Shown piece after piece: positions 56,332 to 61,410 of a DNA stretch of 64,000 bases. The stretch's first letter is position 1, and the number at the start of each line of letters is the position of its first letter. Location of the stretch: NCBI GenBank assembly GCA_047602405.1, contig JASGHJ010000002.1, forward strand, positions 1,728,001-1,792,000, written 5' to 3'. A program made the translations under genes and the position numbers. The notes under the pieces were generated by a model that saw only the letters and a list, made by a program, of their open reading frames with translations, had not been told where the DNA came from and made no database searches. This DNA comes from Anaeromyxobacteraceae bacterium (GTDB lineage: Bacteria; Myxococcota; Myxococcia; Myxococcales; Anaeromyxobacteraceae).

Positions 56332-58958
56332 TTACCCGACCTGCGCGAGCGAGAGCCGCTCCTTCCAGCGGGTCTCCACCGCCTCCCGTGCGGCGCGATG
56401 CCCGGGGGCCTCGAGCCGCGGGTCGGCCTCCAGGAGCCCGAACGCGTCCTCGCGCGCCTCCTCCAGGATCGCCTCGTCGCGGTACAGGTCGGCGACGTCG
56501 AGGATGGGCTGGCCGGACTGCCGCGTGCCGAGGAGCTCGCCGTGGCCGCGGATCTGGAGGTCCACCCGGGCGATCTCGAAGCCGTCCTGGGTGCGCTCCA
56601 TGGCCTTCAGGCGCTCGCGCGCCTCCTGCCCCGCCTTCTTCGCCACGAGCAGGCAGAAGCTCTTCGCGGCGCCGCGCCCCACCCGGCCGCGCAGCTGGTG
56701 CAGCTGCGAGAGCCCGAAGCGCTCGGCGTGCTCCACGATCATCACGCTCGCGTTCGGCACGTCGACGCCGACCTCGATGACCGTCGTCGCGACGAGGAGC
56801 CTCGTCTGGCCCGCCCGGAAGCGGTCCATCACCGCCTGCTTCTCGTCGGCCTTCATGCGCCCGTGGAGGAGCCCCACCTCGACGCCCGGGAACGCCCGGC
56901 GGAGTGCCTCGGCGCCGCTGGTCGCGTCGGCGAGGTCGCTCTTCTCCGACTCCTCGACGAGCGGGTAGACGACGTAGACCTGCCGGCCGGCGGCGAGCTC
57001 CTTCCTCGCGACCTCGAGCGCCATCCGCCGCTGGCCGTCCGGGAAGAGCCGCGTCTCGACCGGCGTGCGCCCCGGGGGCAGCTCGTCGATCTTGGACTGG
57101 TCGAGGTCGCCGTAGAACGCGAGCGCGAGCGTGCGGGGGATGGGGGTCGCGGTCATCACGAGGACGTCGGGCCGCTTCCCCTTCGAGATGAGCCGCGCGC
57201 GCTGCAGCACGCCGAAGCGGTGCTGCTCGTCGACGACCACGATGCCGAGCTTCTCGAAGCCGACGACGTCCTCGAGGAGCGCGTGGGTGCCGACCGCGAT
57301 GCGGGCGCGCCCGTCGGCGACCGCGGCCCGGGCCTCCTTCTGGCCCTTGCCGCGGGCGGAGGCCCCGACGAGCGCGATCTGCACGCCGGTGCCCTCGAGC
57401 CAGCGGGCGAGCGTCCGGGCGTGCTGCTCGGCCAGGATCTCGGTGGGCACCATGAGCGCCGCCTGCCAGCCGGACCGAACCGCGAGCATCATCGCGGCGA
57501 AGGCGACCGCGGTCTTGCCGCTGCCGACGTCGCCCTGGAGCAGCCGGTTCATGGGCTCCCGCCGGCCCATGTCCTTCGCGATCTCCCCGAGGACGCGGCG
57601 CTGGGCGCGGGTGAGCTCGAACGGCAGGCGCGCGGTGGCGCGCCCGAGCGCCTCCGGGCCGGCCTCGAAGGCGATCCCGGCCTCCGCGCGGACGCCCTGG
57701 CGGCGCAGCCCGAGCGCGAGCTGCAGGAAGAAGACTCCTCGTAGGCGAGCCGCCGGAAACCCGGCGTCGCCCGGGCGGCGGCGGCGAGGGGGTCCGTGCC
57801 GGGCGACGGGAAGTGGGCCTCCTTCACGGCGAGCCCGCGGCCCGGCAGGCCGCGCTTCGCGCGGAGCTCGGGCGGGAGGTCGTCCACGAGCGCGGGCGCG
57901 AACTCGTCGACGAGCCGCTTCATCATCCGCCGCAGCGCGGGGTGCTGGTAGTCGGCGGGCCCGGGGTAGATGGGCACGATGCGGCCGAAGCTCGCCGAGT
58001 CGCCGGCCTGGACCTTCTCGATCTCCGGCTGGGACATCTGCTTCCTGCCGCCGAAGCCCTCGGTGACCTTGCCCCACGCGAGGAGCACGTCGCCGGCCGC
58101 GAACTGCTTCAGCCGCCAGGTGGGCGGGTTGAAGAAGACGAGCTTCAGCGCGCCGGAGGCGTCGGTCGCGGTGACCTCGAGGAGCGGGCGCCCGTTCCGC
58201 ATGCGCTGCGTGCGGGAGCCCCGCACGGTGAGGTGGACGATGCCCTCGTCGCCCGGCTTCAGGTCGGCGACCCGGCGCACGTGCGTGCGGTCCTGGTAGG
58301 CGCGCGGCCAGAACTCGAGCGCGTCGGCCACCGTGCGTCGCCCGCGGTCCTCGAGGTTCCCGCGGGTGGCCTGGTGGAACCTCAGCGTGTCGAGCGTGAC
58401 CGAGAGGGCGCGGCGGCGGGCGGCGCGCTCCTTCGGGTCCGCGGGGTCCGGGAGGGGGCTGAAGGGGGCGTCGGGCCTGGCGGGCAGCTCCGGCTCCGGG
58501 GTGGGCTTCGACTCCGGGGCGGGCTTCGACTCCGGCCCGACCCCGCTGCGCGGGTCGGGCCTACGCTCAGCCTGAGCGGTGGAGGAAGGGAACGAGCCGG
58601 GAACGGGCTCCTTCGCCTCGATCCGGCCCGCCCTCGCCACCGCCTGGACCTCCGGTGGGACCGGGATGAGCGCGGCGAGTGCGCCGGCGATCGTGGCGAG
58701 GGAGCGCCTCTGACCGTCGAGGGGCAAGGCCTCGAACCCCTCGGCCTCCGCCGCGAGCCGGCGCAGGGCCGCGGAGTCGGGCGCCCCGGCGGCGCGCGCG
58801 CGGACGACCGCGTCGCCGAGCAGCTTCCCGAAGCCCTTCAGGCGCGCCAGCCCGGCGAAGTTGTCCTTCACCGCGAAGCGCAGCGGGCGGACCACGCCCT
58901 CGAGCACCGCGGCGGCGGCCGCCGCGGGCGAGGCGCTGGGCGGGGTGGGTGGCGGCAT
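56332..58958 (-). CDS. recG: ATP-dependent DNA helicase RecG (one base missing near 57733; ATG contributed by the intron 3' end)
   Basis: Wedge domain, RLLQGDVGSGKT, DEQHRFG, TATPIPR, QLRGRVGR. Confidence 0.94.
58521..58580 (+). repeat. Palindromic repeat family copy inside the recG coding sequence
   Basis: GCTTCGACTCC-GGCCCGACCCCGC-TGC-GCGGGTCGGGCC-TACGCTCAGCCTGAGCGG. Confidence 0.78.
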
Positions 58959-60888
58959 TGGTCGATCCTGGCGCAGTACCGGCCGTTAGGCCAGCCTGGT
59001 TCCAGGGCCTCCTTTCAAACCGTGCGTGCGGGTTTCCCGCACACGGCTTAACGATGGTCTTCGCGCGGCAGCTTGCGCGGGGTAGCGGACGCGGCCCATG
59101 CAGCGGTGCAGGCCAAGCTCGAAGAGACGTTCGAAGGGCCAAGCCTCGTACTGATAGCGAGTCCGCTGACCACCGCGCCGATGGAGCCAGCGCGTGATCC
59201 GTTCGTGCACGTACCAGTCGACGCGGTTGAACTCCCGATCCGCTGTTCCGGTCCGGAAGTAGTTGGCCCAGCCCCGGATGACGGGGTTCACGGACGCGAT
59301 GACCTCCTTCACGTCCTTCGCCCCGCTCCTGCGCACGTCCGTCAGCTCGTGGACGCGCTCGCGGACGCGGGTCATCGCCTTCGGTGAGGGCCAGCGGTGC
59401 ATGTAGTGCCGGTCGGGGCGCCGCTGGATGCTGCGCCGCTTCCGGTTCACGCACCCGAGGAAGGTGAAGCCTTCCTTTCCTCGCCTCAGATCGACGATCC
59501 GCGTCTTCTCCGGGTGCAGCGTCAGGCCGAGGCGCGCCATGATGAGCTCGACGCGCCGCCTCGCCTCGTTCACCTTCGACTCCGTCCCACACATCACGAC
59601 GAAGTCGTCGGCGTACCGCACCAGGACGCCGAGGTGCTTGCACCTCTGCGCCCAGATCCGGTCGAGCTCGTGCAGGTAGACGTTGGCGAGCAGCGGCGAG
59701 ATCACTCCACCCTGTGGCGTTCCCGCCACGGGGTTTCTCACCGTGCCCTCCTCCATCACCCCGGCCTCCAGCCACTTCCGCAGGAGCTTCAGCACCCTGC
59801 GGTCCGAGATCCGCTCCGCCACCATCGCCATCAGCTTCTGCTGGTCGATGCTGTCGAAGTACGCCTTGATGTCGGCGTCGAGCACGAAGTTGTGACCCTG
59901 GTTGCCAGCCTCGCGGATGGCCTCCAGCGCCTGCGTCGCGCTCCGCTTCGGCCGGAACCCGTAGCTCGACGACAGGAAGTCGGCCTCGAAGATCGGCTCG
60001 AGCACCAACTTCGCAGCCATCTGCGCCACGCGATCCCGCACCGTCGGGATCCCGAGCGGCCGCTGCTTTCCGTCTGCCTTCGGGATGTACCGCCGCCTCA
60101 CCGGGAGGGGGCGGTATTCGCCTGCCAGGAGATCGGCCTGGATCCCTTCGAGGAACGCCTCGACTCCGCTCTCCTCGATGGCCCGGATGGACTCGCCGTC
60201 CACCCCTGCCGCGCCTCCGTTGCTGCGCACCCGCTTCCACGCTTCCCGCAGGACGTCACCCCTGCAGATCCGGTCGTACAATGCGTGAAAGCGCCGCGTG
60301 CTGCTCCGCTTGGCGGCCACGTAAAGCCGGCGCTGGAGTTCTCGCACTTTGTCGATGGGGGTGTTGGGCCTCACGGCCATGCCCTCGCGCTTACCCCCAG
60401 TGCCGACGCGACCAAAGCAGGGCCCCTTCCCTCCGCGCGGTTATCCCGCGCCTCACCGGTACTACGGGCCCCTCGGACTCCCTTCCGGCTCCTCGCGCTT
60501 TCGACTCCCGTCTTATGCGCTCGGTCTCTGCCCGACGCGGGCTGCCGGCGAGGGTCTCTCGTGTTCCACACCGATCCTTCGCGACGTGCCGCCGCCCCTA
60601 CCCCGGGGAGCCCCAGCGTCCGTTCCGGACCAAGGACGCTGTGCATCGCCTTCGCCGTGGCATGACCGGCTCGGCGCTCCCGAACACCTTTCGGCTGAGG
60701 ATTTGTCGAGGCTGAAGCGTTCACCTTGTTGCGGCCCGCCGCTTCGCTTCCTCCGTACGTGAGGCTTTCGACGCACCGCTCGGCATGCCCGGTCTCCCGG
60801 ACAAGCTGGTGCCTGCTTCCGGGCTCTCCGGCGATTACCCGGACCGGACTCTCACCGGCTGGATTCGGTGCAGCTTCCACGACGCACC
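58957..60888 (-). mobile_element. Group II intron, about 1.93 kb (boundaries ambiguous by 1 nt)
   Basis: 5' (G)GTGCG, domain V AAGCCGTGTGCGGGAAACCCGCACGCACGGTTT (59017-59049), domain VI ending CCAAT, internal RT ORF. Confidence 0.93.
58986..60380 (-). CDS. ltrA: Group II intron reverse transcriptase/maturase without endonuclease domain
   Basis: [43 protein letters not shown] domain RGWANYF. Confidence 0.95.
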
Positions 60889-60907
60889 ACGCCGGGATCC
60901 TACCGGC

Positions 60908-61410
60908 TCACTCCGACTCTGCGACCTCGTCCTCGACGAACGCGATGGACTTGATCGCGTACTCCCGCTGCCCGCCGGGGGTGCGCACGGTCACCGCGTC
61001 GCCCTCCTCGCGGCCGATGAGCGCCCGTGCGATCGGGCTCGTGACCGAGATGCGGCCGAGCTTCAGGTCGGCCTCGATCTCCCCCACGATGCGGTAGGTG
61101 ACCTCGTCGCCCGAGTCGGTGTCCTCGAGCTCGACCGTGGCGCCGAACACGACGCGGTCGCCGGCGACCTTCGTCACGTCGATGACCTCGGCCGAGGCGA
61201 TCGAGTGCTCGACCTGGAGGATGCGGCCCTCGACGTGGGACTGCTTCTCCTTCGCCGCGTGGTACTCGGCGTTCTCGGAGAGGTCCCCGTGGGAGCGCGC
61301 CTCGGCGATCTCCTTCACGATTCTTGGGGCGCTCCACGGCCTTGAGCCGCTTGAGCTCTTCCTTCAGGCGGGAGAGCCCGCTTCTTCGTCATCGGGACGC
61401 GATCGGACAT
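60908..61410 (-). CDS. greA: Transcription elongation factor GreA (insertions near 61321 and 61383)
   Basis: MSDRVPMT..., [31 protein letters not shown]. Confidence 0.93.

Follow-up and report, generated by a model that had tools for sequence, protein, structure and literature searches.

A mobile group II intron behind the recG start codon of an Anaeromyxobacteraceae bacterium likely belongs to a lineage that targets start codons downstream of TANNNT boxes

Bacterial group II introns are thought either to stay out of housekeeping genes or to require accurate splicing. A clade of IIB1/CL1 introns that occupies initiation or termination codons (Avi.groEL and EcKTE56.groEL) has been described and, according to Gomes et al. 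2025 (PMC12584367), citing Michel et al. 2007, is characterized by a 5'-subterminal insertion of 300–700 nt, a reverse transcriptase (RT) with an endonuclease domain, and an origin in proteobacteria. No description of introns aimed at leaderless start codons turned up in the literature searched, including passages of PMC4424553, PMC3753933, and PMC7306698; Michel et al. 2007, which lies outside this coverage, may bear on the question. Here, we describe a group II intron on the minus strand between greA and the DNA-repair gene recG in a 64,000-nt stretch (the window) of contig JASGHJ010000002.1 from an Anaeromyxobacteraceae bacterium (GCA_047602405.1). We consider it likely that this is a mobile intron devoid of an endonuclease domain, lying exactly after the recG start codon GTG and before codon 2, that retrohomed via its exon-binding site 1 (EBS1) and belongs to a lineage that targets start codons behind TANNNT boxes. 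This lineage is widespread and apparently undescribed.

The insertion is defined by the following features, given in window coordinates.
60897..60902, minus strand: 5'-exon hexamer TAGGAT, which likely serves a leaderless recG promoter as its −10 box; shared with the empty site in G010, the closest relative; contains AGGA at 60901-60898
60888..60893, minus strand: intron-binding site 1 (IBS1), GGCGTG, whose last bases are the native recG start codon GTG (60890-60888); complementary to EBS1 CAUGCC, with one G-U pair
58956..60887, minus strand: group II intron, 1932 nt, GTGCG...CCAATG; supported by Rfam, the G010 empty site, and 8 genomic copies
58956..58958, minus strand: ATG that closes the intron and reads in frame into recG codon 2 (CCG, 58955-58953); supported by the sequence, the frame of the host open reading frame (ORF), and the empty sites

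Read from greA, the gap consists of the stop codon TGA, GCCGG, TAGGAT (60902-60897), CCCGGC, and GTG, followed by the intron, which starts with GTGCG at 60887. The AGGA at 60901-60898 is separated from GTG by 7 nt (TCCCGGC, 60897-60891), and at the 3' end of the intron, ...GCGCCAGGATCGACCAATG, a second AGGA (58969-58966) precedes the terminal ATG, again by 7 nt (TCGACCA, 58965-58959), after which recG continues with CCG CCA. G010 belongs to the same genus, and the N-terminal 348 aa of its RecG are 85% identical. Its intron-less greA-recG junction reads ...gagTGAgccggTAGGATcccggc|GTGCCGCC... (the continuation is also printed as ...gagTGAgccggTAGGATcccggc|GTGCCGCCTCCC), and the window minus 1932 nt matches this junction letter for letter, as AGGA-N7-GTG CCG CCA. 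The removed piece is 60887-58956 or 60888-58957, which are equivalent because a G flanks both ends. An earlier reading of the window (the original prediction) had placed the intron in the recG start codon, took the intron-less junction to be in frame with recG, and noted that unspliced RNA exchanges GTG for ATG; the junction sequences and the alignment with G010, a comparison which that reading had itself proposed, agree with it throughout, and its coordinates and spacings all proved correct on re-reading of the minus strand. It had also allowed that relatives might start recG elsewhere, and GTG stands at this position in 14/14 intron-less relatives inspected within the genus.

Mobility of the element is evident from its copy number together with empty sites. 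The genome (6.16 Mb in 2 contigs, 74% GC) contains 8 near-identical copies, that is, 7 full-length ones and one with a 240-nt internal deletion (L008/L009, G000 C1:1300382-1302092), which measures 1691 nt, retains both ends, and lies behind the ATG of a galT-like gene. Because the copies share a junction pattern, with all 8 located behind (T/G)AGG(A/C)T, 6–8 nt, and then C(A/G)TG, the element is not a chance occurrence. In G010, all four sites examined (recG, an mgsA-like gene, a galT-like gene, and a small fourth gene) are identical to the filled site minus the element, the three other than recG reading ...ATG|CCG... with nothing in between. Six of the full copies are 1931 nt long, and the recG copy, with an extra A at 60865, is 1932 nt long; the copies differ at 10 alignment columns in all, each from the others at few, and the 464-aa RT is intact in 7/7 full copies, so that the spread is recent. 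In 8/8 copies, the terminal ATG shares its frame with the host ORF, and a cut at the textbook ends, GTGCG...AAT, would put all 8 out of frame.

The assignment to group II introns derives from both the RNA and the encoded protein.
60724..60861, minus strand: conserved core of domain I, Rfam group-II-D1D4-4 (RF02003), 85.9 bits, E 7.4e-19
58986..60380, minus strand: intron-encoded protein ORF, 464 aa, RT and maturase; its stop codon TAA (58988-58986) lies inside domain VI, after the ORF has crossed domain V
59017..59049, minus strand: domain V, ~33 nt, Rfam RF00029; RNAalifold pairs at columns 5-39

The domain I score exceeds the gathering threshold of 49, and the 5' consensus GUGYG is matched by GTGCG at 60887-60883. 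The domain V score of 39.8 bits is just under the gathering threshold of 40, and the helix was recovered by RNAalifold in 34/34 sequences. The ORF matches the Pfam domains RVT_1 (1.9e-37) and GIIM (2.4e-16) and nothing else, with no endonuclease domain; domains V and VI supply the coding sequence for its last ~58 aa, and 507 nt separate intron base 1 from the RT start. For the class of the RT, a PDB search and tblastn against plasmids gave no discrimination, and a term search of Toro 2013 (PMC3552965) was of no help.

To characterize the sites occupied by the family, we surveyed 87 related loci, 7 of them from the same family; the other 80 came from public genomes whose labels include Acidobacteriota, Planctomycetota, Myxococcota, Actinomycetota, and Betaproteobacteria. 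Strict placement of the 5' end succeeded in 44. The codon immediately upstream is ATG in 39, GTG in 4, and GAC in 1, so that insertion directly behind a start codon (43/44) is conserved, as the original prediction had anticipated for homologous introns. A TANNNT box at a spacer of 5–9 nt precedes the start codon in 38 of the 40 sites that have 20 nt or more of flank, 25 of them with spacer 6 and 9 with spacer 7, and the boxes include TAAAAT, TACAAT, TATAAT, and TAGAAT, all lacking a Shine-Dalgarno (SD) core. The site in the window, TAGGAT-N6-GTG, fits this pattern. By eye, intron-less recG carries a TANNNT box (among them TAGCCT, TAGCGT, TAACCT, and TAAGCT) 6–9 nt before GTG in 13/14 genus relatives, with varying surrounding bases. 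In this genome, TANNNT occurs at −12 of longest-ORF starts at 13.2 per 1000, vs ~1 at nearby offsets and 0.34 at internal ATG/GTG, and TANNNT-N6-RTG is found at 338 sites vs 77 for N5, figures that are motif statistics and not transcript ends.

Because the boxes of the family are TANNNT of any composition, the AGGA upstream of recG is probably part of a leaderless-type −10 box and not a ribosome-binding site; the original prediction had taken the native AGGA-N7 for such a site, a view disfavored by the family boxes, the recG boxes of the relatives, and the −12 peak in the genome. By the same sequence criteria, the host genes are probably leaderless, that is, transcribed without a leader. The target type of the lineage is a start codon 6–8 nt downstream of a TANNNT box, which may be read as the −10 element of a leaderless promoter. 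Two further observations concern these flanks. In one relative (L030, genome G011), greA and the usual recG GTG are separated by additional sequence, TAGGATcgcccccATGccgtgccggg..., which is absent from the sister genome G006. At another locus (L064), the 5' exon ends with TAGACTGGTACCAATG, resembling the 3' tail of the family, TAGGATCTACCAATG; judging from this likeness, the flank may be the footprint of an earlier copy or may hint that the tail re-creates a target.

Recognition of the target by the intron RNA can be followed at one assigned and one candidate exon-binding site.
60659..60664, minus strand: EBS1 CAUGCC, in a hairpin loop of domain I; covaries with the 5' exon across the family
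60697..60702, minus strand: candidate exon-binding site 2 (EBS2) AUCCUC, tentative; complementary to (G)AGGAU of the target hexamer

The last six bases of the 5' exon, GGC(A/G)UG, can pair with EBS1, and the two sides covary: at the three GTG targets outside this genome (L035, L099, and L100), EBS1 reads CAC, and its fourth base tracks exon position −4, where an A or G in place of C goes with a U in the loop, as in CAUUUC with GGAAUG; 6–7 pairs are formed. It follows that the 5' splice site would lie behind the start codon, that the intron would start with GUGCG, and that it must then end with AAUG. Retrohoming guided by pairing of EBS1 CAUGCC with the exon sequence GGCGTG would be the most likely route by which the element reached recG. 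As a variation on this theme, pairing of the terminal triplet with EBS1 was considered and rejected: G010 fits (EBS1 CACG, terminal GTG), and L081 and L096 contradict it (EBS1 CAUG, terminal GTG).

The EBS2 assignment is tentative. Pairing of AUCCUC with (G)AGGAU would account for the AGG(A/C)T found at every one of the 8 target sites in the genome; an unconstrained family-wide search for EBS2 pairing with the −10 box gave no discrimination (cognate mean 5.5 vs non-cognate 5.3). By eye, G058, G097, and G099 show A(U/G)CCUG opposite TAGGAT, TAGGCT, and TAGGTT at another domain I segment. The pattern NAGGMT-N5-7-C-RTG has 400 matches in the genome, 8 of them occupied, and its first base is T in 7/8 occupied vs 35/392 empty sites; pairing does not favor T, and the bias would therefore reflect survival only at true gene starts or a link to the promoter. 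The hairpin GCCGG-TAGGATC-CCGGC in the 5' exon, a conceivable IIC-like signal, is by eye not consistent at the other 7 sites.

The 3' end of the intron combines a structural element with a start codon.
58960..59012, minus strand: domain VI, with basal helix 59012-59002 x 58971-58960 and bulged candidate branch A 58962 (RNAalifold)
58965..58970, minus strand: hexamer CAGGAT, upstream of the terminal ATG (−12 to −7) and on the 3' side of the basal helix of domain VI; contains AGGA at 58969-58966

Comparative folding of 34 family members with RNAalifold yields a basal domain VI helix of 12 pairs, with compensatory changes in 9/26 predicted pairs of domains V and VI, 7 of the 9 in this helix. The A at alignment column 102 (window position 58962) is unpaired and is followed by 2 bp (CC) and a 4-nt tail. 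The hexamer CAGGAT (58970-58965) contributes to the helix directly before the branch A, with CCAGG pairing with CCUGG (59006-59002). Sister lineages with the same domain VI helix read CU[A]CC-UCAC or CU[A]CC-UAAU where this clade has CU[A]CC-AAUG, which would place the splice site four bases after CC, that is, after the G of AAUG and 7 nt from the branch A. A branch A 7 nt from the 3' end is ordinary group II intron geometry. An alternative with a 3' extension, in which the splice site would lie ~21 nt past an inner bulged A (58977), was ruled out by the comparative folding, which assigns the branch A to 58962.

The 3' end was placed in 37 family members. The hexamer at −12 to −7 reads TAGGAT in 7, AAGGAT in 5, CCCTGA in 4, CAGGAT in 3, CAACGT in 3, GGAGGT in 2, and others once each, always followed by a spacer of exactly 6 nt, CGACCA in the window and CTACCA in the 36 others. 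Of the 37 ends, 18 contain an SD-like core (AGGA, GGAG, or GAGG) and 19 do not, among the latter the nearest sub-lineage (G084, G058, G097, and G068), which has ACCCNN at the hexamer, paired with GGGUGG (CCACCC). The presence of a second AGGA in domain VI, pointed out in the original prediction, is confirmed by the folding. Of the two 3' features whose conservation in homologous introns that prediction proposed to examine, the terminal ATG is retained in the family, whereas the AGGA is not conserved as such, given these counts and the location of the hexamer in a covarying helix. Judged from the aligned ends, the domain VI hexamer motif is recurrent, not universal, and helix-constrained. Apart from the survey, the terminal ATG is supported by the in-frame host ORFs, by two further ends found by eye, CACCAATG and CACCTATG, and by the contrast with sister lineages. 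Sister lineages with RTs 49–68% identical (L105, L108, L116, L118, L126, L134-L137; L133, L138; L072) end with ...ACTCTAC/G, ...CCTCAC, or ...CCTAAT, lacking a terminal ATG (the closest of them, L072, at 68%, with ...CCTAAT), and, as far as seen, they sit elsewhere; the spare start codon is therefore a derived trait of one clade.

For what the hexamer and its AGGA may contribute to host gene expression, there are three candidate readings: a ribosome-binding site, a replacement −10 box, and structure only. Splicing at GUG|GUGCG...CCAAUG|CCG would regenerate GUG-CCG; without splicing, the RNA would retain a start in the recG frame, AUG-CCG. Under the first reading, domain VI carries its own Shine-Dalgarno sequence, the AGGA, which together with the terminal AUG starts recG translation on unspliced RNA and mimics the native AGGA-N7-GTG. 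The identical 7-nt spacing at both intron ends and the SD-like cores in nearly half of the 3' ends, among them GGAGGT and TGAGGT, which are not −10-like, speak for it. In addition, the RT stop lies 27 nt before the terminal ATG in the window's lineage (9–27 nt in 10/34 members); with the RT ORF crossing domain V and ending there, a terminating ribosome would have opened the domain VI helix and could restart by classical translational coupling, so that both the AGGA and the nearby stop could aid recG initiation on unspliced RNA. The RT stop, however, lies 100–122 nt upstream in the other 24 members, the motif imitated is TAGGAT in a family whose target boxes are TANNNT of which many lack a purine run, roughly half of the ends have no SD-like core, and the hexamer is base-paired and covarying. 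On balance, we regard this reading as rather improbable.

The second reading takes the 3' end of the intron as a portable leaderless promoter, with CAGGAT-N6-ATG replacing the native one, so that the transcript would start at the terminal ATG and the host gene would need no splicing. A hexamer, a 6-nt spacer, and ATG reproduce the geometry of the sites the lineage targets, the spacer never varies in length, and A at −11 together with T at −7 is found in 23/37 ends, with a full TANNNT in 8 (TAGGAT in 7, TAGGCT in 1). Some versions (CATAAT, CAACGT, and AAGAAT) are −10-like and not SD-like, and the TAGGAT versions keep the helix through G-U pairs. Against this, the present copy has C at −12, 14/37 ends lack the A-11/T-7 pair, the domain VI helix and the branch site alone can explain the conservation, and shared ancestry leaves few independent events. 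This makes the portable promoter an unlikely explanation, the least probable of the three.

According to the third reading, the terminal AUG and the hexamer serve the ribozyme only, expression of the host gene depends entirely on accurate splicing, and any similarity to expression signals is incidental. This agrees with the general reliance of group II introns on splicing, with the near invariance of CU[A]CCAAUG, which holds the branch A, and with the compensatory changes in the hexamer helix. Yet the sister ends UCAC and UAAU, attached to the same helix, indicate that AUG is not required for the fold, the only variation at its first base is A to G, in 3/37 ends, which keeps a start codon (the detector allowed A or G only), and no host ORF is out of frame with the terminal ATG. 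We hold this reading to be possible, though doubtful.

Several observations weigh against a spliced intron behind a leaderless recG start. Group II introns usually end in AY, and this one ends in UG if its 5' end is GUGCG; a shift of both boundaries by one base (G|GTGCG...CCAAT|G) is compatible with the sequence and could still apply. The 3' end detector required RTG, which makes the count of 37/37 terminal ATG/GTG circular, and the family members are related, so that the survey counts are not independent events. A leaderless recG would leave a 5' exon of 3 nt, which may be too short for both splicing steps, and read-through from greA may consequently be needed. In more distant genus members, mgsA and galT have ribosome-binding sites of the GGAGG type and not TAGGMT, so that TAGGMT could in part act as a weak SD sequence in this genome. 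A simple sigma-70 scan found no promoter, as is expected at 74% GC, and thus lends no support. No sequencing run of this organism was found; the search gave only small-share metatranscriptome runs, and in four of these (X1-X4), the contigs represent related introns, mostly 90–95% alike, with no coverage of 60887-60967 and no exon joint. A 1927-nt contig from X3 (depth 86) spans 58956-60864 at ~91% identity, with 14 loose letters, and covers nearly the exact extent of the intron, with nothing past it; its ends fall at the repeat boundary and are uninformative on RNA ends. Separately, the start architecture of mgsA and galT has changed within the genus (L145-L152), with TAGGMT-N6-ATG in G000 and G010.

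Taken together with the site preference of the lineage, the 3' end admits a further, tentative proposal, to which we give limited credence: the intron would commandeer a leaderless gene's promoter and start codon to express itself and, in exchange, would provide a portable replacement at the base of domain VI, consisting of a hexamer resembling a −10 box or an SD sequence, 6 nt of constant spacing, and a terminal AUG that in this lineage also follows the RT stop by 27 nt, such that recG would be expressed without splicing. If this were true, the element could settle in housekeeping genes at almost no cost. A lineage aimed at the first codon of promoter-adjacent genes and equipped with a spare start codon would embody a different survival strategy and would tie a retroelement to leaderless expression. 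It would also offer a natural system for the study of splicing with a 3-nt 5' exon, of DNA-level recognition of leaderless starts, and of host-gene expression signals borne by an intron. The lineage also matters for annotation, because automated gene calling will assign wrong starts to such genes and overlook the intron.

The frame that opens at the host start codon is a further trait of the family. In 29/44 members, it remains open through domains I–III into the RT, and the first 200 codons of frame 0 are free of stops in L036-L040, five same-family relatives of nearly full length, in which each of the other frames has 3–8 stops. In the window's lineage, the host frame closes after 12 codons and the RT starts from a separate ATG, the RT of the six sister copies being in another frame. 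A connection between loss of this open frame and the 3' motif was considered and dropped, as the motif occurs in 5/7 members without the fusion and in 14/21 with it.

The flanking genes contain frame breaks of their own.
60908..61410, minus strand: greA, the gene 5' of the intron; Pfam GreA_GreB and GreA_GreB_N; stop codon TGA at 60910-60908
56332..58955, minus strand: recG from codon 2 on; Pfam RecG_wedge, DEAD, Helicase_C, and RecG_dom3_C in two frames

The RecG wedge domain is encoded in the ORF opened by the terminal ATG, and the helicase domains follow further on in another frame, the shift mapping near 57735, where the window reads GAGGAGTCTTC vs GAGGAGCTCTTC in G010, with one base lost; compared with the RecG of G010, the N-terminal part is 84% and the C-terminal part 99% identical. 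By tblastn, aa 1-9, 16-29, and 28-166 of the G010 GreA each fall in a different frame, so that the greA breaks lie within the first ~30 codons (window 61410-61327). The extra A at 60865 likewise distinguishes the recG copy, with CCGAATCC, from the six sister copies and relatives, with CCGATCC, and alters the frame relation of the host start codon to the RT. One-base assembly errors are the likeliest source of the greA and recG frameshifts and of the extra intron base, as judged from these alignments, and recG therefore need not be a pseudogene.

Compared with described introns, the element shares single traits with several systems. The yeast mitochondrial introns aI1 and aI2 have ORFs in frame with the upstream exon, which resembles the open frame that runs from the host start into the RT in most family members; unlike them, the window's lineage has abandoned this frame in favor of a separate RT start, and the setting is bacterial and probably leaderless. 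Introns of the B.c.I4 type carry a 3' extension, whereas here the branch A at 58962 is only 7 nt from the end, with no extension. The element also resembles subgroup IIC (class C), in that the endonuclease domain is missing, a gene-expression signal rather than one particular gene marks the target, and IBS1 pairing is limited to 3–4 bp in some sites. Subgroup IIC introns, however, sit behind terminators or attC hairpins, whereas this insertion lies inside the start of an ORF, and a terminator scan found no terminator-like site at the insertion; furthermore, the EBS1-IBS1 pairing reaches 6–7 bp and domain V has 33 nt.

A further comparison is with the IIB1/CL1 clade. The original prediction invoked a lineage, including the Azotobacter vinelandii groEL intron, that targets start and stop codons; such a lineage indeed exists, according to PMC12584367, and the intron described here lacks both its 5' insertion and its endonuclease domain. 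In place of a large 5' insertion, the present intron has 507 nt in all before the ORF, and its relatives have 0–48 nt at the corresponding spot. As an observation on that spot, L037-L040 carry a ~48-nt insertion at intron bases ~12–60, right after GTGCGTCGTGA, at the same place at the base of domain I as the large insertion of the IIB1 clade. The RT of this intron is free of the endonuclease domain found in the clade, and the relatives, unlike the proteobacterial members of that clade, are labelled Acidobacteriota, Planctomycetota, Myxococcota, Actinomycetota, and others. What the two have in common is the location in or next to an initiation or termination codon and an insertion that changes the codon and keeps its function, from UAA to UAG there and, in unspliced form, from GTG to ATG here.

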